DNA of 40,364 nucleotides from a virus (Duplodnaviria; Heunggongvirae; Uroviricota; Caudoviricetes): IMG/VR virus record IMGVR_UViG_2563366860_000007, positions 1 through 40,364 of that record. One strand, written 5' to 3'. The notes beneath the pieces were generated by a model. It was not told the DNA's origin. It did no database searches and saw only the letters and a program-made list of their open reading frames with translations. Shown here piece after piece: positions 943-35,106 of the stretch; the stretch's first letter is position 1; each line of letters begins with the position of its first letter. Made by a program: the position numbers and the translations under genes.

Positions 943-3002
943 TTCACAACCTCCCCAAGCTGCGCATCTGTTAGCTCTTTATGCCAGAGACGAAAATTCC
1001 TCACATGCCCAAATAAATGGCGTAATCCTGCTGTAGTTTGTCCACCAATGCGAATGGTTGCTGTACTCCGGATATATTCCCATGTGGTTTTTGTTTCGCT
1101 GGATATACGCCCGTTACTTACTGCACATGTAGACCGTTCGGACTTTACCCGCATACCAATAAGCATTTTTTTCAGCCCGGCATTTTCATTTATTCGTCGG
1201 TCTGAACCACCTATATCGCAATACGGAAAACCGTCGTACCCACCTGATGAACCAAACCCCATTACGATCCCCGCTCCGGTTTGATGACCGCCGGTATCAA
1301 AAACACGCGGCGCTGCATTTGGCGTTTTATACCAGTTCTTATGTACCTCACAAAGAACCGTAAAAGGAAGATTATAAAGATTATTATTAATTGGAACTGT
1401 AACTATATCGCTTGCGCGGGTAGCCGCCGTCGTTCCTGAGATAATAAAAGATGATGCACACGAACCATCCTCAACCTGAGGGGTGGCCAGATAAATATAG
1501 TCTCCAGATACGGTTGCTCCGCCCTGATTAGGAGAATACTGTATCTGAGATCCTATTTTTAACTCATCATCAATTGCCAGGATTGTTGCCTCTGCAAAAA
1601 TCCATCCGGTAGCTTCGTCCTTTCTGACTCTCGCTGTAACCCTTGAGTCCGCGCCACCTGTCATATTAATTTCAAGCGTTTGTGTATCAATATATGCATC
1701 ACCAAGAAAAGTTGTTGCACTACCGTCATATTTATCAAAGCGGATACGCAACCCTACCTGTCGTTCTGTTTTAAAACGACATGAGGTTGTCACGTACTTG
1801 TTATCGCCTGAAACATCAACTGACTTTGTAGCAGCAATTGATGCCATATTAATGGCTGACGTTTTCCCAATCAGAGAATCGTTACAAACAAACTTTCCAT
1901 AAGTAAAACCAAAACTATCAGTTCCAACCTCAGCGACATTCATATTTGCAGATTTACCCCAAGAAGCTGGAGTTGCTGAATTCAACATGTAGTTGGTTCG
2001 CTGACCTTCAATCAATAAACCTTCTTTTTCAAATCGTGGCTCATTAATTTCCGCCGTTTTCAGTTCGCCAGATTTATTGATATATGTTGCCGTTGATGCG
2101 CGACTGAAATTAACCTGTTTATCACTGGCAACCTGAACCACATTATCACCAATCTTCACTTTTTTATAACCCGGAGAATAGCCCGTAATCATATCCAGCG
2201 AATCATTAAAGGGTATCCACACATCCGGCAGCGGCTGTAAAACATATCTGTACGGCTCTGCTGTCTGGTTTGCGTATTCTCTGGCAGCATCTTCACTTGC
2301 TTTTGCTGCCGTCTGGCTTGCTGCCGATGCTTTCGCCGAGTTCGCCGCCGCTGTTTCGCTCACCTTTGCGTTGGCTTCACTGTCTTTGGCATTCGTCTCA
2401 CTGGTTTTCGCTGCCGTCTGGCTGGATTTTGCGTTTTTTTCGCTGGCCTTTGTGGCTGTCTCGCTATTTTTCGCGTTGGTTTCTGATTTTTTGGCTGCTG
2501 TCGCGGAGTTTGCCGATGCAGTCTGCGAGGCCGCTGCCGCCTGTGCGCTGTTAGCTGCATTCGTTTCTGAGGTTTTCGCCGCGTTCTTCGATGATGCCGC
2601 GGCAGTTTCGGATTTCTTTGCTGCCGCTGCGCTCTGTGATGATGCTCCGGCATGACGTGCCACTTCATTCACCATCAGCTCAAAACGGCGCAGTGCCTCC
2701 GGACGAACATCATCCTCCGTCATGGCGCCGAGAAAATCATTCAGCGTACCTGGTCTGGAACCTTCATAGACGGTAATGGTCCCGGCATGTGAAGGCGGAA
2801 AACCTTCAACCAGCAGGGTGACGCTGTACTGGCCATACTCAACATCCATGCTGTAACGCCCGGCTTCATCCGGATTTTCAGAGGCCACCGTGTTCACCAC
2901 CACCGTGCTGCTGGTCCGTCTGGCCTTCAGCACAATGGTGCAGTTCTGTACTGGTTTTCCTGTGCCATCTTTCAGCACACCTGAGATTTTTACTGCTGCC
3001 AT
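939..3002 (-). CDS. stf: Side tail fibre protein (lambda Stf-like N-terminus, collagen-like repeats, divergent C-terminal domain)
   Basis: N-terminus MAAVKISGVLKDGTGKPVQNCTI...GRYSMDVEYGQYSV closely matches recalled lambda Stf; Ala/Ser/Thr/Lys-rich repeats (KKSETNAKNSETA...) follow; ATG at 3000-3002 has a GGAG 6 nt upstream (the track start at 3008 is GTG). Confidence 0.85.
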   Translation of the reverse strand: MAAVKISGVLKDGTGKPVQNCTIVLKARRTSSTVVVNTVASENPDEAGRYSMDVEYGQYSVTLLVEGFPPSHAGTITVYEGSRPGTLNDFLGAMTEDDVRPEALRRFELMVNEVARHAGASSQSAAAAKKSETAAASSKNAAKTSETNAANSAQAAAASQTASANSATAAKKSETNAKNSETATKASEKNAKSSQTAAKTSETNAKDSEANAKVSETAAANSAKASAASQTAAKASEDAAREYANQTAEPYRYVLQPLPDVWIPFNDSLDMITGYSPGYKKVKIGDNVVQVASDKQVNFSRASTATYINKSGELKTAEINEPRFEKEGLLIEGQRTNYMLNSATPASWGKSANMNVAEVGTDSFGFTYGKFVCNDSLIGKTSAINMASIAATKSVDVSGDNKYVTTSCRFKTERQVGLRIRFDKYDGSATTFLGDAYIDTQTLEINMTGGADSRVTARVRKDEATGWIFAEATILAIDDELKIGSQIQYSPNQGGATVSGDYIYLATPQVEDGSCASSFIISGTTAATRASDIVTVPINNNLYNLPFTVLCEVHKNWYKTPNAAPRVFDTGGHQTGAGIVMGFGSSGGYDGFPYCDIGGSDRRINENAGLKKMLIGMRVKSERSTCAVSNGRISSETKTTWEYIRSTATIRIGGQTTAGLRHLFGHVRNFRLWHKELTDAQLGEVVK
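2270..2660 (-). repeat. Tandem collagen-like coding repeats inside stf
   Basis: Repeated DNA units of the form GCTGCCGTCTGGCT / TTCGC...GCCTTTG visible by eye; they also create long spurious ORFs in other frames. Confidence 0.6.
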
Positions 3003-3013
3003 ATCCACTCCAT

Positions 3014-3040
3014 AAAAAAGCCCGCCTGAACCGGCGGGCT
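3014..3040 (-). terminator. Putative rho-independent terminator downstream of lom
   Basis: Plus strand AAAAAA then GCCCGCC-TGAACC-GGCGGGC; on the minus strand this is a stem followed by a U-run, between the lom stop and stf start. Confidence 0.5.
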
Positions 3041-3066
3041 GTCATAACACTGTGTTACCTGGCTAA

Positions 3067-3666
3067 TCAGAACTTATAACCGACACCCACGATGAAACTG
3101 TTGGTACGCCAGTCACCGCTGCCGGAGCCTTCATAAGCGACATCAATGGCCACGGATTCGGTCGGGTTAAACTGCACGCCAGCTCCCCACGCCAGAGACG
3201 TGTTGCTGTGGCGACCGTCATCACTTCCGGTCAGCACATCGTGCTTTTTCCCCTTGTTGTCAGTTACGCGGAGATAATCCCCGGAGAAAGTCGACACACG
3301 GCTGTAAGCCACACCCGCCATCGCATACGCGCTGAACCATTCATTCACGCGTACAGACGGCCCCGCCATCACGCTGAACCAGCGGTTACGCACGGAATCT
3401 TCATGCCAGCGGGTATCGCTGTAGTGCGTTTTTTGCTCATCCTCAGCATTGGCATAACTGAAGGACGTAATCAGCCCCAGCGCGTCCGTAAACTCATAAC
3501 GGTATTTCACGTTAATCCCGTTCAGATTATCGCTGCCGGGAGCGTTCGTACGGGCATGAAGATACCCCGCGCTCAGTGTGGACTGATGTTCAGACGCCCA
3601 TGCAGGCGCACCGGATACGGACAGACAGATGGCTGCGGACAAAATGGCTGCACATAATTTACGCAT
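3067..3666 (-). CDS. lom: Outer membrane protein Lom (Ail/Lom family)
   Basis: Signal peptide MRKLCAAILSAAICLSVSGAPAWA and C-terminal VGVGYKF beta-barrel ending; sits between J and stf as in lambda. Confidence 0.85.
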   Translation of the reverse strand: MRKLCAAILSAAICLSVSGAPAWASEHQSTLSAGYLHARTNAPGSDNLNGINVKYRYEFTDALGLITSFSYANAEDEQKTHYSDTRWHEDSVRNRWFSVMAGPSVRVNEWFSAYAMAGVAYSRVSTFSGDYLRVTDNKGKKHDVLTGSDDGRHSNTSLAWGAGVQFNPTESVAIDVAYEGSGSGDWRTNSFIVGVGYKF

Positions 3667-3733: not shown

Positions 3734-6700
3734 TCAGCTAATCGTGATGCCTGCAGTGGCTTTCTTCATCACAACAACCAGCAAATCGCTGATACTTGCT
3801 GTGGGATACCAGCCATTTACCCACCATGCTGATACAGAAAACTCCAGCGTCATGTCGCCGCGACCAGCAGGCATATTAATAACACCACTGTAAACCAGCG
3901 TATTATCCAGCGCGGTACGGTTATAAATTTCAGCACCGTTTTTCTTCACTATCAGGCGGCATGACGAATAAGTATCGCTGTTCTCCTGCTCATGTCTGGC
4001 ACCGCTGAAAGCCACCGCCGGAATAACAATCTGCCGGTTAAACGGCTGATCGTCATAAACCCTGACGGTAATGGTTCCTGATGGCCAACGCTTCGGTGCA
4101 CGGGAGTCACGAGGGAAAGCCTTACCCACTGTTTTAACGAGATCGCCTTCAATCTGGTTTGCAGACAGTTTCCCTCTGATGACACAGTTCTCGTTAATGG
4201 TGACATTATTGAGCGTGCCGGTATTCGCCGTGATGGCTCCACTGATATCCGCATTGCGGGCTGTCAGCCTGCCATCCGGCGTCAGGGAAAACGTCGGAGG
4301 ATTGCCGGATGACGTGATGCTCACCGCAAACAGTCGCTTCAGGAACACGTCGTTCATGAACAGCTGATTCCCCTGCGCCACAAATAACGGCGTGGTGTTA
4401 CCGTTCTCCGGAGTAATCATCGCAATGCGATCGGCCTGCAGCAGAATGTTACTCAGCGTCTGACCATCGACATCCTCGATCCCCGCGCCAATCCCGGCCA
4501 CATAGGGAATACCGTTTTTTGTTTTCTGCACCTTCAGCATATACATGGCATTCAGCTCATTGCGCGTGTCTGACTGAACCCGCTGGATTTGCTGTATGGT
4601 CACGGCCTGGTCACCCAGCTTTTTATCCGTGGTCGAGGCAATTTCACTCCCTTTTTCATCCACGTACTGACGGACCTGTGCTATCTGCCGGGCGTTTTCT
4701 GACTGGCCCTGGCTGACTGTCTGCTTGATTTCACTTTGCTTTTTGTCCACGTACTGGCGGACCTGTGCTATCTGTCGGGTATTTTCCTCACTGCTCTGAC
4801 TGACCGTCTGTGAGATTTCACTGCTGACACGGTCCACTTTCTGACTCACCTGCGCGATGGCCAGCGTCTGATCCTCATTCTTTTTCGCAACCAGCTGCGT
4901 GAGGCTGTTTTCCGCCTCCCCGATTTTCCGGGTCACTTCCGCAATATCCGTGTCCATCCGCTGGCGGATGTCTTCTTCCAGTTGTCCGATATTCTCTTCC
5001 AGTTGAGTGACATCCGATCGCAGGGCTGACGCATCAATGCGCTTTTTCAGTGCCTGCCCCAGCAGCGTCTCATCTATCAGACCACGGAAAAATTCCAGAT
5101 ACCCTTTTGCATCATTGCTGGCCTGCCCGCTGGCTTCCACAAATGCAGACTTGCCCACCAGGTTGACACTGCGCACATAAAACCAGAAATCCATCCCCGG
5201 CTTAATCCGATCGCCCTGGACAGTCCACTGACTGCCGGTCCCCAGATAACGGGCAGATTTTTCCACCTGTGCCGTGTTCGTGATGCGTTTTTCTGAGAAC
5301 CAGAATTCAAACTGTACCGTCGGGTCATACACCGCAAGACGCGGGACCGCCGTTATCTGAAAATACCCCGGCGTCAGCTCAATCCGCGATGGCGCTGCCG
5401 GTGCGGCAATCCGGAACGATACCGACGCCGGATCGCCCTGCTGTCCCCACGCATTTACCGCCCGGACTGTCAGCCTGTAGTTCCCCAGAGCCAGTTGTGT
5501 GAAGCGGTATGTGGTTTCCGTCGTCCTGGCCGTGCTGACCAGCCGCTCACTGCCATCGTCCGCTGCCACGGTCAGGCGAAGCAGGAAGCTCACGCCCTTC
5601 ACCACCTTCGGCGTGTCCCAGCGCGCCAGCACCTGATATTCCCCGCTGTCTGCAGTGACTTCGGCGGTCAGATGCTGCACTGCTGGCGGCGTGACACCAT
5701 TCACCGTGCCGCTCTGGTCACCGTCAAAGTGCGCCCCGTTATCCACGATGGCTTCTTTTTCCGGTACATGCTGCACGGCGGTGATGGCATACGTGCCGTC
5801 ATCGTTCTCACGGATACTCACGCAGCGGAACAGGCGCTGGCGCAGCGTCGGCAGCTTCAGCCCCCACACGCTGTATCCGGCAACGCCGTCAGGAACACGG
5901 CTCACTTTTACCTTCACGCCGTCGGTGACGGACTGGACCTCCACGCTGACCGGATTACCACTTCCGTCAACCAGGCTTATCAGCGTGGTACCGGAGGATG
6001 GCAGCGTGATTTCACGGTCGAGCGTCAGTGTCCGCGTCTGGCTGTTCACCGCCAGCACGCGCCCGCCGGTGCTGATACCCGCATAGTCATCATCACAGAT
6101 TTCAATAACATCGCCCGGTACATGGCGAAGCCCTTCTGCGCCCACGCTGAAGTCCACGGTCTGCGTTTCCAGCAGCTCCGTTTTAATCAGCCACAGCCCG
6201 GCGCGGTGTGCCTGCCCCCGGCTGGTACAGCCAAAGGCATCCATCTTCGTGACATTACGACCGTAACGGGCAATGGCCCGCGTGTCCTCCACAAGCTCTG
6301 TCGCCGTCTCCCAGCCGTTATCCGGATCAATCCAGTTCACCTCAACGGCATTATGACGGTCCTTCAGGGCGCTGAAGCTGTAGCGGAACGGCGCGCCATC
6401 ATCCGGCATCACCACATTACTGCGGTTGTAGGTCCACACCTTATCTGACGGTCGGTCCTGCACGAACGTCAGCGTCTGCCCGTTCCATACCGGCATACAG
6501 CGCATCGCCGAGCAGAAATCACTGAGCACATCCCACGCCTTACGCTGTGTGGTCAGGTACGCATTACAGGTGATGCGCGGCTCCGTACCGCCAAAACCGT
6601 CCGGCACCGACTGGTCGCAATACTGGCCGATGACATACAGCGCCCATTTATCCACATCCGCCGCACCAAGACGTTTCCCCATGCCGTAGCGCGGGTGGGT

Positions 6701-7600: not shown

Positions 7601-8272
7601 TCAGCGACCAATCACCACAACCTGACCACCGTCCCCTTCGTCTGCCGTGCTGATCTCCTGAGAAACCACCCGCGACCCCACACGCATTTCACCGTACAGA
7701 ACAGGCAGAACATTGCCCTGAGCAACCATGTTATCCAGTGAGGAAAAATAGGTGTTCTGTTTGCCGTTATCCGTTGTCTGTGTACGGGGAGTTCTGGCTT
7801 TCGGTGCCAGCATCTGCGCCACACCACCGAGCACCATACTGGCACCGAGAGAAAACAGGATGCCGGTCATACCACCGGCCCCAATGGCTGCCCCCCATGC
7901 TGCAAGGGTGGCTCCGGCAGTAAAGAATGATCCGGCAATGGCGGCAGCTCCCAGGACAATCTGGAATACACCACCTGACTTGGCCCCGGCGACTCTGGGA
8001 ACAATATGAATCACAGCGCCATCAGGCAGAGTCTCATGTAACTGCGCCGTTAATCCGGACGTGCTGACATCCCGCCCGGCAATCCGTACCTGATACCAGC
8101 CGTCGCTCAGTTTCTGACGAAACGCCGGGAGCTGTGTGGCCAGCGCCCGGATAGCTTCAGCCCCCGTTTTCACACGAAGATCGATGCGGCGGCCAAATCG
8201 TTGCAAATCCCCGTAAAGGCAGATGCGTGCCATGCCCGGTGACGCCAGAGGGAGTGTGTGCGTCGCTGCCAT
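7601..8272 (-). CDS. I: Tail assembly protein I
   Basis: 223 aa; MAATHTLPLASPGMARICLYGDLQRFGRRIDLRV matches recalled lambda gpI. Confidence 0.85.
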   Translation of the reverse strand: MAATHTLPLASPGMARICLYGDLQRFGRRIDLRVKTGAEAIRALATQLPAFRQKLSDGWYQVRIAGRDVSTSGLTAQLHETLPDGAVIHIVPRVAGAKSGGVFQIVLGAAAIAGSFFTAGATLAAWGAAIGAGGMTGILFSLGASMVLGGVAQMLAPKARTPRTQTTDNGKQNTYFSSLDNMVAQGNVLPVLYGEMRVGSRVVSQEISTADEGDGGQVVVIGR

Positions 8273-23924: not shown

Positions 23925-23990
23925 TGCCGCCCGTATCCATATGCGGGCTTTTTTTTGCATGTAAAAAGGCCCCAACACATGTGCGTGGGG
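23925..23990. terminator. Pair of hairpins upstream of the holin (possible bidirectional terminators)
   Basis: GCCCGTAT-CC-ATATGCGGGC followed by T8 (plus-strand terminator) and AAAAA-GGCCCC-N13-GGGGCC (minus-strand terminator). Confidence 0.4.
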
Positions 23991-24192
23991 CCTGAGAGTA
24001 TACATGGTTTCAGTCAACTGCATGGTGCCGGGTGCCTCCCGGTGAATTCAGTACCAGCACCTGAATCCGCGATTATCCCATATACCTACTCGCTGATTGC
24101 CCATCCGCACAGGGGGATTCACCATGCCAGTTTCTTTTAACAAACTCCCCGCAAAACAGACAACTGTCAACCGTCTGAATTGTGAGACATTT

Positions 24193-24218
24193 AAAAAAAA
24201 GGCCCGCAAAAGCGAGCC
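24193..24218 (-). terminator. Rho-independent terminator just downstream of the tRNA cluster
   Basis: Plus strand AAAAAAAA then GGCCCGCAAAAGCGAGCC; on the minus strand a 7-bp stem (with one G-U pair) and UUUU loop followed by U8. Confidence 0.5.
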
Positions 24219-24232
24219 GGGAAAAATAAGTC

Positions 24233-24309
24233 TGGCGCGTTGTACTGGATTCGAACCAGTGACCGATTGCTTAGAAGGCAATTGCTCTGTCCGGTTGAGC
24301 TAACAACGC
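24233..24309 (-). tRNA. tRNA-Arg (anticodon UCU)
   Basis: Hand-folded cloverleaf: acceptor GCGTTGT/ACAACGC perfect, anticodon arm ATTGC-CTTCTAA-GCAAT, T-loop GGTTCGAATCC, encoded CCA; third gene of an Ile-Arg-Arg cluster like ileZ-argN-argO of Stx phages. Confidence 0.8.
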
Positions 24310-24322
24310 AGGGTACAGATAA

Positions 24323-24399
24323 TGGACCGCCTTCGGGGACTCGAACCCCGCGCAACCAGCTTCGAAGGCTGGTGCTCTATCCTGATGAGCTAATGGCGG
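24323..24399 (-). tRNA. tRNA-Arg (anticodon UCG by hand folding)
   Basis: Acceptor CCGCCAT/AAGGCGG with one A-A mismatch at 6:67, anticodon arm CCAGC-CTTCGAA-GCTGG, T-arm CGGGG-TTCGAGT-CCCCG, encoded CCA. Confidence 0.7.
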
Positions 24400-24406
24400 T
24401 ATGTGA

Positions 24407-24482
24407 TGGTGGCCCTTGCTGGATTTGAACCAGCGACCTGGCGATTATGAGTCGCTCGCTCTCACCACTGAGCTAAAGGGCC
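24407..24482 (-). tRNA. tRNA with CAU anticodon, Ile2 (ileX/ileZ-like) backbone
   Basis: Acceptor GGCCCTT/AAGGGCC, anticodon loop CTCATAA, T-loop GGTTCAAATCC; backbone resembles recalled E. coli ileX (lysidine-modified CAU reading AUA) rather than elongator or initiator Met tRNA. Confidence 0.75.
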
Positions 24483-31807: not shown

Positions 31808-32434
31808 ATGGAAACGGTTGGTCAGCGTATAAAAGCTCTGAGAAGAGTTACCAGAACGTCCCAGAAAGAATTGGGTAAATTTTGTGGAGTAAGTGACGTT
31901 GCTGTGGGGTACTGGGAGAAAGACATCAATGTCCCTGGTGGGGAAGCACTTTCAAAATTAGCGAAGTTCTTCAATACGTCAATAGATTACATTCTTTATG
32001 GTGCGGAGTTTGAAGGCAAACTCGTCACAAACATGCGCAGAGTTCCTGTAATCTCGTGGGTTCAGGCTGGGCAGTTTACTGAGTGCAGGACAGCAGAAGT
32101 GTTTAGTGAAGTAGACAAGTGGGTAGATACATCATTAAAGATTGGTGATAACTCATTTGCATTGGAGGTTAAAGGCGACTCCATGACTAACCCTAACGGC
32201 CTCCCAACAATACCAGAAGGCGCAACAGTGATTGTAGATCCTGATGCAGAACCCCGGCATGGAAAAATAGTCATCGCTAGACTTGATGGAACAAACGAAG
32301 CCACAGTAAAAAAATTAGTTATCGATGGCCCTCAAAAGTTTTTAGTGCCATTAAATCCCCGGTACCCCAACATCCCGATCAATGGTAATTGCCTCATCAT
32401 TGGTGTAGTCAAAGGAGTTCAATACGAACTCTAG
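31808..32434 (+). CDS. cI: CI-type prophage repressor (HTH plus S24 LexA-like peptidase domain)
   Basis: N-terminal HTH (QRIKALRRVTRTSQKELGKFCGVSDVAVGYWE) and C-terminal autocleavage domain with GDSM Ser and downstream KK. Confidence 0.9.
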   Translation: METVGQRIKALRRVTRTSQKELGKFCGVSDVAVGYWEKDINVPGGEALSKLAKFFNTSIDYILYGAEFEGKLVTNMRRVPVISWVQAGQFTECRTAEVFSEVDKWVDTSLKIGDNSFALEVKGDSMTNPNGLPTIPEGATVIVDPDAEPRHGKIVIARLDGTNEATVKKLVIDGPQKFLVPLNPRYPNIPINGNCLIIGVVKGVQYEL

Positions 32435-32453
32435 CCCCCCCTTTTCTCTAACC

Positions 32454-32490
32454 AAAACACCGAACTAAGAAAAGTTTGGTGTTTTCTCTT
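32454..32490 (+). terminator. Hairpin plus T-rich tract downstream of cI, flanked by operator-like half-sites
   Basis: AAAACACC-N16-GGTGTTTT followed by CTCTT; ACTAAG half-sites at 32463 and 32500 (same motif as in OR). Confidence 0.35.
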
Positions 32491-32790
32491 GCCATTAAAA
32501 CTAAGTTAAGTTAGATTTTATATCAAAGATAACGAACAGGCAGGACGCCCACGAAGTAGCCGCCTGGGGCATATGAAGTCCAGGATGATTCGTTAGTACC
32601 AAAAAAGCGCCCTACCGGACGCTTCGCTCTTTAAAAATCAGTAACCCTCACTTTGGGCCTGGATCTGGTGGCCTGGGACGAGGTGGAATATGAAAAGGCT
32701 CTATTGGTCGACTCATTATCCAATCCTATTATGTCTCATTTCTTCGGTTTCGGTGGTTTCGGCTTCGGAGGTACATGTCCGTGAACTGGA

Positions 32791-33285
32791 TTATGCTTGT
32801 TGGTCATCATTAATATCCGTTAGTTCATTCTCTAGAGGTAGATCTCCCGCACACCAAGCTATAAATTTTTCTTTGGTTGTTAAATCGTACTTAGTTGGAA
32901 CACCAGCAAAAATACAGGCCCGAATGAAAGCCGCTCGTTCAAGTGATTTCCATGGATTACTATCAGTATCTTGGATTTTTAAATACCTAGCTTGCAACTG
33001 ATCTTCAGGAAGGGTATCAGACTCAATCAGCAGTCTTTTGTAATGCCTCGCTTGCTCTTTAGACATTCCAGCCTCTTGGCCAAACTGATAGACCAACTGA
33101 AGAACCGAAAGTACGGCAACAAACAAACCGAAAATAAATAAATTACTGTACGGGGCGAAAACTGAAAAACCGAGAACGATTAACATCAACGTTATTAATT
33201 TATCAATGCGAGTTAACAACGTGTAATTCATCTTCTCCAATACATAAGAGTAGTGAACATAAAATTTATAATCGTCTCTGGTCAT
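32791..33285 (-). CDS. SieB-like membrane protein (candidate superinfection exclusion / abortive infection), AT-rich moron
   Basis: 164 aa; two adjacent TM helices (LITLMLIVLGFSVFAPY, LFIFGLFVAVLSVLQLVY) then a charged soluble C-terminus; antisense to the flanking early-left genes, as recalled for sieB in the Rac prophage; visibly AT-rich. Confidence 0.5.
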   Translation of the reverse strand: MTRDDYKFYVHYSYVLEKMNYTLLTRIDKLITLMLIVLGFSVFAPYSNLFIFGLFVAVLSVLQLVYQFGQEAGMSKEQARHYKRLLIESDTLPEDQLQARYLKIQDTDSNPWKSLERAAFIRACIFAGVPTKYDLTTKEKFIAWCAGDLPLENELTDINDDQQA

Positions 33286-33670
33286 ATTAGTCTCAGTTTT
33301 CCTTGGGTGGTTTTGGAGGAACTGGAGGCTTTTGTCTTAACGGCACATGCCTCTCCTCATACTTATCTACACATAGATCCATATAAATCCTTATCGTTGT
33401 TGGGGAGGGTTACATAATAACCAAATCCTTGTTGTTGGGGAATAACCAGGTCCACCTCGCCTGATGTGGCTAAAAGCAGGCACATAACAGCTAAGTATTT
33501 TCAACCAGAGAGAATCCTTAGCGTTGTGGTGAATGCGCAGGCTGATGCGCGAAAGACATTGCAGCTATTGCGGAAAAGAGCTGTTCGGCGGGGCAATTAA
33601 ACGCCCGTGAGAGTCTGAAATAACCGCAAGCCGGAGATCAGCACCGGTCACCACAACAGCCACTGCTTTG

Positions 33671-33718
33671 GCGGTACCAGTTTGTACACTTGCTTCCGGC
33701 TGGTACCGCTCTTTTTAC
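33671..33718 (+). terminator. Strong rho-independent terminator upstream of the early-left gene cluster
   Basis: GCGGTACCAG-N19-CTGGTACCGC (10-bp perfect stem) followed by TCTTTTTAC on the plus strand. Confidence 0.5.
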
Positions 33719-33853
33719 AAAACAGAGAAGAGCATCACCGGACGACGGGCTCATAACCCAATCCATCCGGGCGGCTGCCACCGCAGGTGTTCTTCTCTGT
33801 TTTGTGGAGAAACCAACCGACCTTGCAGGGTCGATATGATGAGGAGCAGCAAA

Positions 33854-34216
33854 ATGGCTAGCGAACGCAGTACTGATGTGCAGGCATTTATCGGGGAGCT
33901 GGACGGCGGCGTATTTGAAACCAAAATCGGCGCAGTTCTCAGTGAAGTCGCTTCCGGTGTGATGAACACGAAAACCAAAGGTAAGGTCTCGCTCAACCTG
34001 GAAATCGAACCGTTTGATGAGAACCGTGTGAAAATCAAACACAAACTCTCATATGTTCGCCCGACTAACCGCGGGAAAATTTCTGAAGAAGACACCACCG
34101 AAACGCCGATGTATGTCAATCGCGGTGGTCGCCTGACTATTCTGCAGGAAGACCAGGGACAATTACTGACTCTTGCCGGTGAACCTGACGGAAAACTCCG
34201 CGCAGCAGGTCATTAA
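33854..34216 (+). CDS. YfdP-like hypothetical protein (120 aa)
   Basis: ATG at 33854 preceded by GAGGAG; size and following gene order match recalled CPS-53 yfdP-yfdQ-yfdR-yfdS; the track ORF start at 33668 runs through the terminator and is rejected. Confidence 0.5.
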   Translation: MASERSTDVQAFIGELDGGVFETKIGAVLSEVASGVMNTKTKGKVSLNLEIEPFDENRVKIKHKLSYVRPTNRGKISEEDTTETPMYVNRGGRLTILQEDQGQLLTLAGEPDGKLRAAGH

Positions 34217-34281
34217 TATCGTTCTTAATTAACTGATTATTTATCTCATCACTGAATATCTTAATATAGTGAGGACTTATT

Positions 34282-35106
34282 ATGTCTCAGAACTTAGACG
34301 CAACCGCAATTAATCAAATCCATGCCCTTATTTCTGCTCAGGGTGTTAATGAAATTATCAGTAAGATTGGTGCCGATGCTGTGGCATTGCCTGAGAATTT
34401 CCGCATTCATGATCTGGAAAAATTTAATTTAAATCGCTTCCGTTTCCGTGGTGCGCTTTCCACTGCCAGCATCGATGACTTTACCCGTTATTCTAAAGAT
34501 CTTGCAGATGAAGGCACCCGCTGCTTTATCGATGCTGATAATATGCGTGCCGTCAGTGTGCTTAACCTGGGTACTATTGATGAACCAGGTCACGCAGATA
34601 ACACCGCCACTCTCAAACTGAAAAAGACAGCACCGTTCTCTGCCCTGTTGTCTGTTAACGGCGAGCGTAACTCCCAGAAATCACTGGCAGAATGGATTGA
34701 AGACTGGGCCGACTACCTTGTGGGCTTTGATGCTAATGGTGACGCCATTCAGGCAACAAAAGCGGCTGCGGCAATCCGTAAAATCACGATTGAAGCAAAC
34801 CAGACCGCTGATTTTGAAGATAATGACTTCAGCGGCAAACGCTCCCTGATGGAATCTGTCGAAGCGAAGACCAAAGACATTATGCCAGTGGCATTTGAAT
34901 TTAAATGCGTTCCGTTTGAAGGTCTGAAAGAACGTCCGTTTAAATTACGCCTCAGCATTATCACTGGCGATCGTCCTGTACTGGTTCTGCGCATTATTCA
35001 GCTGGAAGCGGTGCAGGAAGATATGGCTAACGAATTTCGTGATCTGCTTGTTGAGAAATTCAAAGACAGCAAAGTAGAAACCTTTATTGGTACTTTCACC
35101 GCCTGA
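34282..35106 (+). CDS. YfdQ-like protein (DUF2303 family)
   Basis: 274 aa, same length and position as recalled CPS-53 YfdQ. Confidence 0.6.

Follow-up and report, generated by a model that had tools for sequence, protein, structure and literature searches.

The leader ahead of yfdP in a prophage early-left operon: a probable chain of plus-strand RNA modules headed by sRNA-17

Layout of the region ahead of yfdP

The window (the whole stretch of DNA analysed, 40,364 nt) carries ahead of the gene yfdP a 568-bp stretch, 33286-33853, that is the subject of this study. This "leader" is a mosaic of separate modules and not a single attenuator, and in our judgement the region is probably a chain of plus-strand RNA modules heading the prophage early-left operon (yfdP-yfdQ-yfdR and the genes that follow), the first of which is the small RNA sRNA-17. 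The features, in order along the window, are:

33285, minus strand: start ATG of a 164-aa gene, bordering the spacer that carries the direct repeats
33396-33406 and 33431-33441, no strand assigned: two exact copies of the direct repeat GTTGTTGGGGA, in the spacer between the start of the 164-aa gene and the sRNA gene
33448-33482, plus strand: conserved word CCACCTCGCCTGATGTGGCTAAAAGCAGGC, with a potential GCCUG/CAGGC hairpin
33522/3-33715, plus strand: sRNA-17 gene, placed by exact primer and probe matches (PMC7719688)
33523-33531, plus strand: 5' strand of P1, GUUGUGGUG, acceptor-like, pairing with 33649-33657
33533-33610, plus strand: 25-aa ORF MRRLMRERHCSYCGKELFGGAIKRP, within the RNA core and in our judgement no gene
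33535-33550, plus strand: P2 hairpin GCGCA-GGCUGA-UGCGC, D-arm-like, by covariation
33551-33629, plus strand: variable middle, a long P3 arm in this subfamily, by MFE fold (UUGCGG at 33568-33573 with CCGCAA at 33624-33629)
33630-33648, plus strand: P4 hairpin GCCGG-AGAUCAGCA-CCGGU, T-arm-like, stacked directly on the 3' strand of P1
33649-33657, plus strand: 3' strand of P1, CACCACAAC, by covariation
33658-33669, plus strand: 12-nt linker AGCCACUGCUUU from core to terminator, single-stranded in the family model
33670-33716, plus strand: intrinsic terminator of sRNA-17, with 13 bp in its stem (33670-33682 paired to 33698-33710), 15 nt in its loop and UCUUUUU after it
33716-33806, plus strand: E2, a conserved three-way-junction RNA, by covariation
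33818-33833, plus strand: hairpin CGACCU-UGCA-GGGUCG, by covariation of its stem
33841-33846 and 33854, plus strand: RBS GAGGAG and start codon of yfdP (RefSeq yfdP, WP_000135680.1)

The neighbouring 164-aa gene on the minus strand has no Pfam match at E<=0.01, the SieB family included, and yfdP is likewise without a Pfam family. In the spacer, the direct repeats that a sequence-only reading of this DNA had pointed out at 33396 and 33431 are exact and real; the expected number of 11-mer repeats of this kind in 568 bp is, by arithmetic, about 0.04, and both copies are retained in SfIV and PhiR49_1 and missing from mEp460 and cdtI, which have a different upstream flank. The repeat may be a site for a regulator or a repeat belonging to a promoter region. 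The word CCACCTCGCCTGATGTGGCTAAAAGCAGGC recurs in many related phages, where it precedes the cassette or stands immediately before the terminator module, and in phage LLS it directly follows pL; its conservation is one of sequence only, since covariation was looked for and none was seen. Near the 5' end of the sRNA the only -10-like word is GAGAAT at 33510-33515.

Identity and fold of sRNA-17

The first module was identified by mapping the primers in Table S2 of a published study onto the window. In that study (Sun et al. 2020, Front Microbiol 11:574833; PMC7719688) sRNA-17 is a 193-nt RNA from a mEp460-like prophage of E. coli K1 RS218, defined by 5' and 3' RACE and Northern blot and induced in stationary phase, for which no Rfam homologue, an Mfold structure only and no family analysis were given; reads have also been reported in transcriptomes of other pathogenic E. 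coli. Eight of the published oligonucleotides lie inside the RNA and match the window exactly, jointly covering 165 of the 194 nt of 33522-33715: the full-length R and F primers (at 33522 and 33684-33715), the Northern probe (the reverse complement of 33584-33633) and RACE primers at 33550, 33584, 33594-33612, 33616-33633 and 33650-33668. The published 5' end coincides with the first base of P1, and the published 3' RACE end falls at 33715, within the U-tract of the terminator. The published identification primer F matches 33832-33852 and yfdP starts at 33854, so that the context directly upstream of yfdP is as published, and from 33517 onward the window is 99.7% identical to mEp460.

The RS218 and window copies have the same sequence, strand and ends and lie in the same mEp460-like module directly upstream of yfdP. 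They differ in their upstream flanks: that of RS218 is ArcA-bound, while that of the window is of the SfIV/e14 type and has no match to the published promoter primers or to the 5' portion of deletion arm H2; because of this difference the reported ArcA control is not transferable to the window copy. A discrete 193-nt RNA with these ends has been shown to exist in a lysogen (RS218) in which the downstream genes are meanwhile essentially silent (yfdP 0.49 reads and yfdR 0 reads in the wild type; PMC7719688). Because the published sRNA-17 mutant carried a Cm cassette, the changes in expression seen in it, among them a rise of about 95-fold in yfdP, may be polar (PMC7719688). The RNA is absent from the RefSeq annotation and has no Rfam model, and an Rfam scan of 32400-34300 gave no match either at the gathering threshold or at E<=10. 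While sRNA-17 itself is already known, and the window holds no new kind of system, its family-level fold and the structure of E2 appear not to have been described before.

The strong terminator that had been noticed at 33671-33718 is genuine, as its position is conserved with a different stem sequence in ST64B, Kp4866-6, phiNP and LLS and the 3' RACE end lies in its U-tract. A simple promoter and terminator scan missed it because its loop is longer than 8 nt, and folding was relied on instead. Within 90 nt, a terminator is present for just 29 of 100 family members; many copies can therefore not be free-standing sRNAs that end at a terminator.

Covariation supports a model in which the core of sRNA-17 folds as a tRNA-like cloverleaf: P1 resembles an acceptor stem, P2 a D arm and P4 a T arm, and P3 is variable. 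Across 64 distinct phage homologues, 95.4% of cells in the whole core are paired and 14 of the 24 pairs have changed on both sides, which none of 500 shuffles reached; the sampled sequences are interrelated, so that the shuffle counts for the core, as for E2, are not probabilities, and the pair counts were made on joined 5' and 3' cores, the middle of 40-190 nt being unalignable between subfamilies. P1 has 9 bp, of which the top four (GGUG/CACC) are kept across the family; seven of the nine changed on both sides in the 64 cores, the 5' hexamers take 38 different forms, each matched by its partner, and the mean length is 7.9 with true partners against 6.1 with shuffled ones. P2 is 100% paired with two pairs changed on both sides, in a sample gathered with a pattern that fixed most of P2 and under-sampled its variation, and P4 is 97.5% paired with four of five pairs changed on both sides. 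The P2 loop (33541-33545) is complementary to the P4 loop (33638-33642; GCUGA/UCAGC), and this loop-loop helix is 99.7% paired, its replacements being nine G-U and one A-U. G-U pairs exceed the A-C pairs implied by the opposite strand, which favours an RNA of the plus strand.

The MFE fold of the region yields P1, P2, P3, P4 and the terminator. The P3 arm encloses a GGCGGG/CCCGU(G) hairpin, and this inner hairpin is preserved in one homologous locus, L030, by a change from GGCGGG/GCCCGU to GGCAGG/GCCUGU. Part of the linker is placed by the MFE fold in a small 3-bp hairpin; the linker is a possible candidate for a seed or Hfq-contact region, and in the SfIV, e14 and LLS cassettes its place is taken by an RprA-like word, UUGCUGUGUGUAGUCUUUG. 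Conservation is much stronger in the scaffold than in the middle, the reverse of what is found in most base-pairing sRNAs, which hints that the scaffold itself is functional.

E2 and the UGCA hairpin

E2 is composed of H1, with 19 pairs (33716-33736 with 33786-33806), H2 (CCGGA/UCCGG, 33738-33742 with 33766-33770), which encloses GGG-CUCAUAA-CCC, and H3, a hairpin of variable length at 33772-33783. The 13-bp inverted repeat that had been placed at about 33718 and 33787 is real (AAAACAGAGAAGA at 33719 and TCTTCTCTGTTTT at 33791) and lies within H1, a covarying helix. We found E2 in 75 distinct versions ahead of different first genes. In a sample gathered with a pattern fixing part of H2, E2 is 97.6% paired, nine pairs have changed on both sides, and 0 of 500 shuffles reach the covariation score. 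Its many G-U pairs disfavour a minus-strand element or a DNA palindrome and point to RNA of the plus strand. The earlier reading had named structure prediction with covariance analysis across homologous prophages as its check, and covariation shows conservation of the fold both in the core and in E2.

The UGCA-loop hairpin lies 12 nt after a conserved word, GGAGAAAC, and 7 nt ahead of the RBS. Its stem covaries (CGACCU, GGCGGU, AGCGCCU, AACGCC) and its loop stays UGCA, GGCA or GUGCAG. A reading frame is open from 33668 into yfdP, and SfIV_34 is annotated as such a fusion; an N-terminal extension of YfdP was rejected, because E2 indels are not multiples of three and the same leader stands before different first genes.

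In phage lambda the N-leader carries nutL and then an RNase III-sensitive hairpin before N. E2 resembles it in forming an extended helix between pL and the first early-left gene, within the 5' UTR of that gene, but differs in being a three-way junction with a conserved inner hairpin, and here there is neither an N gene nor a boxB-like GNRA-type loop.

Relatives, alternative readings and a working model

SfIV, ST64B and e14 carry at exactly this slot a cassette of the STnc100 type with an identical P1. The SfIV positional homologue matches Rfam STnc100 (RF02076) from end to end, terminator included, with 38.4 bits (E=4e-5), and ST64B and e14 score 35.1 and 29.2 bits, all three below the 47-bit gathering threshold; the window copy has no match to RF02076 in 32400-34300 even at E<=10. 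A canonical STnc100 lies elsewhere in the window, at 23957-24156, beside three tRNA genes. STnc100 and the window copy share a GGUG...CACC closing stem with an AAU junction, hairpins on the 5' and 3' sides of a variable middle, the 3' one stacked on the closing stem, and a terminator, whereas the P2 and P4 sequences and the GCUGA/UCAGC loop-loop pairing are specific to the sRNA-17 type, and sRNA-17 sits in the early-left leader, STnc100 in the late leader. Both STnc100 and PasD are Hfq-bound sRNAs found by RIL-seq.

In all, at least 27 cassette types occur between identical flanks at this slot, the core being swapped for STnc100-type, cdtI-type, tRNA-like and at least 20 other cores, and some phages having none; mosaic breakpoints coincide with the P1 arms (33516/33523 and 33649/33658). 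The same core, 98% identical, is found in lambdoid prophages, P1-like plasmids and phage IME207, and the same scaffold in tRNA arrays of P1-like, N4-like and Vi1-like phages.

DicF, from the Qin prophage, is a 53-nt sRNA of an immunity-region operon, released by processing and with an intrinsic terminator, with dicB next; it is without a tRNA-like core. Like sRNA-17 it is an sRNA in a lambdoid early operon with a terminator ahead of downstream phage genes. By reading, UUUGGCGGUACCAGUUU in the window resembles UUUGGCGGUAUCAGUUU of DicF, and a weak match to DicF (28.5 bits, E=0.002) comes from the terminator module in the e14 cassette; the Rfam DicF model has no match in 32400-34300 of the window.

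Among the alternatives, the one that survives best takes the tRNA-like scaffold as the active part, either as a decoy, competitor or substrate for RNase P, the CCA-adding enzyme or tRNA-targeting defence nucleases, or as an RNase P-processed carrier that releases and stabilises the variable insert. The geometry agrees with a tRNA mimic, in that a P1 of 7-9 bp is stacked on a 5-bp P4, 3 nt separate P1 from P2, and a loop-loop contact replaces that of the D-loop and T-loop. So does the genomic setting: of 101 copies, 19 have a tRNA gene no more than 500 nt away, compared with 5% of random positions, and all 19 are on the same strand as that gene; copies cluster on the same strand also with T-arm-like minihelices directly upstream, occur in tRNA arrays of P1-like plasmids and, in IME207 and IME11, adjoin tRNA genes. 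On the same P1, sister cassettes carry canonical D- and T-arm sequences, and in 26 of 94 copies a CCA is found no more than 2 nt from the end of P1 (about 5% expected, by arithmetic on uniform base composition). The near-identity of the core in lambdoid prophages, P1-like plasmids and IME207, and the published 5' end at the first base of P1, point the same way. Yet the core is unrecognised by ARAGORN and by the Rfam tRNA and YrlA models, it has no anticodon-like loop, and CCA is missing in most copies; moreover, the reading is compatible with a trans-acting sRNA role and not exclusive of it. As the account of the locus we hold it to be rather unlikely. That the core is a tRNA gene was rejected, as ARAGORN called nothing even in tRNA-looking sister cassettes: it found no tRNA in the homologous loci L002-L004, L006 and L011 or in the sister-cassette loci, and the Rfam tRNA, c4, tmRNA and YrlA models have no match in the region.

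The c4 RNA of P1 and P7 has a 5' end made by RNase P. This RNA, the tRNA-like domain of tmRNA and YrlA share with the core an acceptor-like stem on a T-like arm, an insert replacing the anticodon region, the association with tRNA genes and a 5' end at the first base of the closing stem. The core departs from them in its Watson-Crick loop-loop helix, which stands in place of the D-loop/T-loop contact, and shows no evident aminoacylation or Ro-binding features. Literature searches found no described tRNA-like phage RNA family. We raise tentatively, as a single proposal in two parts, that sRNA-17, STnc100/PasD and at least 20 other cores form one undescribed class of interchangeable phage tRNA-mimic cassettes, and that E2 is a second new class, a cis-regulatory RNA gating prophage early-left operons. 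Such a cassette class may be defined by an acceptor-like stem, D-like and T-like arms joined by a Watson-Crick loop-loop contact and a free variable arm, and may be carried in tRNA arrays and operon leaders by lambdoid, P1-like, N4-like and Vi1-like phages and by siphoviruses such as IME207. Selection may then keep the scaffold and not the insert, and the partner of the scaffold would be a conserved host machine, for instance RNA polymerase, tRNA-targeting defence nucleases, or RNase P and further enzymes of tRNA processing.

An antitermination-type element like put had been suggested for this region from its sequence. Under that reading the folded core would bind RNA polymerase in cis, and transcripts from pL would pass the terminator at 33670-33716 and later ones and reach yfdP...int. 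The placement of some copies is in keeping with it: in two homologous loci (L083 and L095) the core, in the manner of putL after pL, begins about 10 nt past the -10 of a promoter that is under repressor control and directly follows cI; downstream come the terminator, E2 and yfdP, and no further promoter is apparent. The HK633 copy lies in a late leader between pR'/qut and the holin gene. Other family members belong to long tRNA arrays that are not translated and in which anti-termination would be of use, a scaffold near-invariant across hosts fits a conserved host machine, and a boxA-like word, TGCTCTTT, occurs in 33 of 116 upstream flanks, with the exact rrn boxA TGCTCTTTAACAA in locus L032. 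The HK022 put RNA is formed of two stem-loops, about 70 nt in a V shape (PMC9378689). Although putL and putR, like the region studied here, are promoter-proximal structured RNAs of lambdoid early operons upstream of terminators, the RNA here differs from put in its architecture, being a four-helix cloverleaf and ending at its own terminator, and the complete HK022 genome, searched by local blastn-short and by motif scans for matches to the sRNA core, E2 and the pL leader, gave chance words only. The published RNA stops at the terminator with yfdP and yfdR silent in the expressing lysogen, and the unrelated cores at the same slot, or none in some phages, are hard to fit to one polymerase-binding surface. 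The flank of the window copy is without a boxA-like word, and between pL and yfdP there is no N-like ORF, so that an N/nut site was not found either. What stands of the suggestion is a conserved structured RNA; the put-like mechanism, given an RNA that is dissimilar to HK022 and ends at its own terminator, we regard as improbable.

It is more improbable still that the element acts as DNA, the arms GTTGTGGTGAAT...CACCACAAC being recombination linkers for cassette swapping with no RNA function. The many cassette types between identical flanks and the breakpoints at the P1 arms would be expected from linkers, but P1 covaries widely, with 38 different 5' hexamers and matching partners, tolerance of G-U pairs is confined to one strand, covariation extends to P4 and to the loop-loop pairing, and the RNA has been detected experimentally (PMC7719688). 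The two roles are compatible, and the arms of the structured RNA may double as recombination anchors.

The region is neither a leader-peptide attenuator, nor an operator, nor the pL promoter. The ORF, the pentamers CTAAG (33491) and CTTAG (33517) and a downstream terminator, from which a leader peptide controlling the terminator and repressor half-sites had been read, are all present, but we give that interpretation next to no credence: the 25-aa Arg-rich ORF is unconserved, its AUG being part of the invariant GGUGAAUG in the P1-P2 junction and opening 84 different peptides of 6-200 aa across 105 distinct homologues, its sole SD-like bases lie inside P1, it ends 60 nt ahead of the terminator stem, an alternative pairing with that stem was sought in the fold and none found, and the pentamers are at chance level (about 0.55 of each expected per 568 nt), while the longer operator word AACTAAG is confined to OR (31721, 31770) and OL (32463, 32499). 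OL/pL follows cI directly, at 32463-32517 and thus some 1 kb upstream of the region, with a promoter-like TTGCCA-17-TAGATT at 32489-32517 beside the OL operator words.

The reading we prefer, a chain of RNA modules with sRNA-17 first, leads to a working model. sRNA-17 consists of the cloverleaf, the 12-nt linker and the intrinsic terminator where its transcript ends and, by analogy with its Hfq-bound structural relatives STnc100 and PasD, may act in trans as a base-pairing regulator; the compact tRNA-like core would lend stability and possibly a tRNA-type site for 5' processing. The terminator could double as a barrier that holds the early-left operon silent in the lysogen. The 5' UTR of that operon would be made up of E2 (33716-33806) and the UGCA-loop hairpin (33818-33833); both would be used only once transcription from pL (32489-32517) passes the terminator after induction, and would probably govern the first gene through its processing, stability or translation.

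With sRNA-17 missing from RefSeq and Rfam, the locus has been re-discovered as an "odd intergenic region" and covered by spurious ORFs such as the 25-aa one; spurious protein calls also lie on sister cassettes, as SfIV_34/35 and probably ymfH of K-12 e14. The covariation-supported fold ties sRNA-17 to STnc100 and PasD and to a near-invariant tRNA-like scaffold common to very different phages, and so moves the question from the mRNA pairing partners of sRNA-17 to the binding partner of the scaffold. The terminator, E2 and the UGCA hairpin together make up a conserved gate before the early-left operon in a large group of enterobacterial prophages (SfV, SfIV, ST64B, mEp460, e14 and CPS-53-like).

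A published small RNA upstream of yfdP

The window is of the E. coli lambdoid prophage type of SfV, SfIV, mEp460 and CPS-53, and the region between its 164-aa gene and yfdP (33286-33853) has no RefSeq annotation and gives zero Rfam matches at gathering thresholds or at E<=10. Of 5426 complete E. coli genomes, 2893 have parts of this query and only 39 have at least 80% of it; breakpoints within the region set a mosaic of three pieces. The 164-aa membrane protein, called SieB-like in an earlier sequence-only reading, matches no Pfam family at all, SieB included. On either side of its gene lie mini-ORFs (33293-33382 and 32736-32810, both minus strand) with Pro/Lys-rich C-terminal tails, ...RQKPPVPPKPPKEN and ...VPPKPKPPKPKK, a likeness that may reflect chance or a recurring motif.

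Genes, mosaic pieces, mapped primers and MFE helices
31510-31710, minus: cro
31808-32434, plus: LexA-family (cI-like) repressor gene
32791-33285, minus: 164-aa membrane-protein gene
Upstream flank: mosaic piece 1, common to SfIV, SfV and e14
33516-33658: mosaic piece 2, core, ~143 nt
33522: start of published full-length R primer
33523-33531 with 33649-33657, plus: P1 (acceptor-like)
33535-33550, plus: P2 (D-like)
33568-33573 with 33624-33629, plus: P3 (variable), long
33584-33633: Northern probe (reverse complement)
33630-33648, plus: P4 (T-like), stacked on P1
33522-33715: all five RACE primers
33715: end of published full-length F primer
33649-33853: mosaic piece 3, terminator and yfdP leader, near-invariant in cdtI, Stx2 phages, SfIV and others
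33818-33833: hairpin after conserved GGAGAAAC; stem covaries, loop UGCA or GGCA; ribosome-binding site follows
33854-34216, plus: yfdP
3' of yfdP, plus: yfdQ (DUF2303), then yfdR

A literature search on yfdP led to sRNA-17 (Sun et al. 2020, PMC7719688), a 193-nt RNA that E. coli K1 RS218 carries in an mEp460-like prophage and that was mapped by 5' and 3' RACE and confirmed by Northern blot. The published primer table matches the window exactly and by primer identity places the RNA at 33522/3-33715 on the plus strand; the strong terminator noted from sequence, a hairpin with U-tract at 33670-33716, is on this mapping its 3' end. The authors reported no Rfam homologue and gave the structure as an Mfold drawing only (PMC7719688). 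The RS218 promoter fragment bound by ArcA-P (PMC7719688) is absent from the window, which has an SfIV/e14-type upstream flank, so ArcA control cannot be assumed for this copy.

Two of the five features listed in the sequence-only reading are at chance level. The 11-nt direct repeat is there (33396 and 33431), as are CTAAG (33491) and CTTAG (33517), which lose their operator-like status given ~0.55 copies per pentamer expected in 568 nt. An Arg-rich 25-aa ORF (33533-33610) likewise exists, its AUG lying in the invariant GGUGAAUG of the core, but among homologues the peptides that begin at this AUG number 84 different ones, 6-200 aa long, so the ORF is judged to be neither a gene nor a leader peptide.

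Fold of the core and its likeness to tRNA

Structure prediction and covariation across homologues, proposed as checks in that reading, support a conserved RNA fold. In its MFE fold the 193-nt RNA comprises P1 to P4, a short linker and the terminator, and the loops of P2 (GGCUGA) and P4 (AGAUCAGCA) are complementary over 5-6 nt. Homologues with both ends of the core, 5' and 3', number more than 100 distinct sequences, drawn from IMG/VR and from cultured Escherichia, Klebsiella and Salmonella phages; the middles that separate these ends are unrelated and 40-190 nt long. Hafnia, Pantoea, Enterobacter, Stenotrophomonas and Aeromonas phages match over a shorter length, at the conserved 5' end only. 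With the two ends joined in 64 distinct members, 95.4% of cells are paired and 14 of 24 pairs change on both sides (P1 7/9, P4 4/5, P2 2/5), in a sample of mutually related sequences collected with a pattern that held most of P2 constant. The loop-loop helix shows one A-U and nine G-U replacements. None of 500 shuffles reaches the pairing and covariation values, slid controls collapse, and P1 has 7.9 paired positions with true partners against 6.1 with shuffled ones; its G-U tolerance points to the plus strand.

As modelled, the core appears to reproduce a cloverleaf layout, with P1 (7-9 bp) on the 5-bp P4, a 3-nt junction, D-like P2 and the loop-loop contact. A tRNA gene lies within 500 nt of 19/101 copies, compared with 5% for random positions, and is on the same strand in all 19. 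A P1-like phage-plasmid has two copies between tRNA-Thr and tRNA-Ser, one 98% identical to the core of the window and the other a second variant; in IME207 the core is just upstream of tRNA-Ser and tRNA-Arg, in N4-like IME11 ~460 nt upstream of tRNA genes, within 2 kb devoid of annotated genes, and in Magnus (Ackermannviridae) within a stretch annotated with tiny hypothetical ORFs only. T-arm-like minihelices stand directly 5' of many copies. The sister cassettes L208 and L213 combine the same P1 with canonical D- and T-arm sequences; ARAGORN called no tRNA in them. The published 5' end is the first base of P1; RNase P-type processing would fit this, and so would a transcription start, with the -10-like GAGAAT at 33510-33515.

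Several further observations concern these surroundings. The tRNA array of the P1-like plasmid pEc-050-T20-ESBL_3 (L005, 2772-3860) holds tRNA-Asn, tRNA-Thr, a T-arm-like minihelix and tRNA-Ser, with the core at 3001-3143, the second variant at 3442-3528 before tRNA-Ser and a partial STnc100-like element at 3739-3859 after it; phage RCS47 has the same core annotated as 'putative lipoprotein Plp'. A boxA-like TGCUCUUU precedes P1 by 5-13 nt in 33/116 distinct 5' flanks (L012-L131), and at one locus, L032, an exact rrn boxA (TGCTCTTTAACAA) lies ~50 nt upstream of the scaffold. Some copies carry complementary GGTAAGAGCAT after P1, extending the closing stem to ~19 bp, which could be an RNase III site.

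Different cassettes before a common leader

In the same slot and flanks, SfIV and PhiR49_1 have a different core with an identical P1; this stretch matches Rfam STnc100 over its whole length, with the terminator, at 38.4 bits (E=4e-5), short of the gathering score (47). ST64B and K-12 e14 match likewise. STnc100 and PasD, two sRNAs that associate with Hfq, share a structure. A canonical STnc100 lies in the window's late region at 23957-24156 (minus, 133 bits), directly downstream of three tRNA genes; here (23957-24482, minus) a tRNA-like sRNA accompanies tRNA genes just as the sRNA-17 scaffold does in other phages. At least 27 cassette types occur in 113 distinct regions preceding a terminator and the junction E2 described below (37 STnc100-type, 24 cdtI-type, 16 sRNA-17-type), and some regions have none.

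The cassette-terminator linker of phage LLS (L136, 1370-1506), and those of SfIV, phiNP, Kp4866-6 and e14, contain UUGCUGUGUGUAGUCUUUGCCC, which is near-identical to the 3' half of RprA, an sRNA of the host. The Rfam RprA score is 40.8 bits, short of the gathering score (70); given this likeness the linker may be an RprA mimic. The window's sRNA-17 has a shortened form, AGCCACUGCUUUGG.

The long-range inverted repeat (13 bp, arms at 33719 and 33791) proves to be the centre of a 19-pair helix, 33716-33736 with 33786-33806, closing a three-way junction (E2) that holds a conserved hairpin, CCGGA/UCCGG around GGG-CUCAUAA-CCC, and one of variable length. Across 28 distinct versions 97.6% of cells are paired and nine pairs change on both sides (one position is GC:15/CG:13), G-U pairs are common, and not one of 500 shuffles attains the covariation score. 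Different first genes follow this terminator-E2-hairpin leader in different phages, and it recurs in ST64B, phiNP, Kp4866-6, LLS and e14.

Protein annotations overlie these RNAs. In e14 (L248, 1543-1900), ymfH (1576-1887), just upstream of xisE, covers an STnc100-type cassette, an RprA/DicF-like word, a terminator and an E2 homologue, and is, on this overlap, probably a spurious ORF. Hypothetical proteins across cassette, terminator and E2 in SfIV (SfIV_34, SfIV_35; L002, 2413-3325), PhiR49_1 (242-aa CDS; L004, 1975-2888) and mEp460 (mEp460_036; L003, 2622-2765) are likely ORF-calling artefacts on structured RNA.

Function of the region

The best supported reading is that sRNA-17 is a discrete product ending at its own terminator. 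By analogy with its relatives STnc100 and PasD it would act in trans; the terminator would double as a block that silences the early-left operon in the lysogen, with E2 and the hairpin as the putative 5' UTR of that operon. Conservation is higher in the scaffold than in the insert, which makes a function centred on the scaffold, such as tRNA mimicry, a possible alternative.

A put-like antitermination element acting in cis is disfavoured. It could appeal to two IMG/VR loci (L083, L095) with a repressor-controlled promoter whose -10 lies ~10 nt before the start of the core and with the operon beyond the terminator, but the published RNA ends at that terminator and wild-type RNA-seq with sRNA-17 expressed gave 0.49 reads for yfdP and 0 for yfdR (PMC7719688), so the terminator is efficient in the lysogen. 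The ~95-fold yfdP rise in the sRNA-17 mutant (PMC7719688) is uninformative because a Cm cassette was inserted and the terminator kept (deletion arm H1, 33666-33704). The promoter of those two loci (~7990-8070) is a palindrome-flanked TTGACA-18-TACATT directly after a cI-like gene; judged by this layout their sRNA would be the first pL product, repressed in the lysogen, unlike in RS218.

The region is not the true pL, since the operator word AACTAAG is restricted to OR (31721, 31770) and OL (32463, 32499) and a promoter-like TTGCCA-17-TAGATT lies beside the latter at 32489-32517, ~1 kb upstream and directly after cI. Directly 3' of OL/pL on the plus strand is a conserved structured leader of ~65 nt, GAACAGGCAGGACGCCCACGAAGUAGCCGCC...GGAUGAUUCG (about 32537-32600), common to ST64B and phiNP, with compensatory changes in its inner hairpin; as a nut- or put-like site of this phage group, should there be one, it is a better candidate than 33286-33853.

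The structural observations made from sequence were largely right and the mechanistic readings mostly not, and the centrepiece of the region, sRNA-17, is already known. As far as the searchable literature shows, what is new is the covariation-supported tRNA-like fold, the link of sRNA-17 to the STnc100/PasD group and to widespread phage cassettes, and the conserved E2 and hairpin leader.
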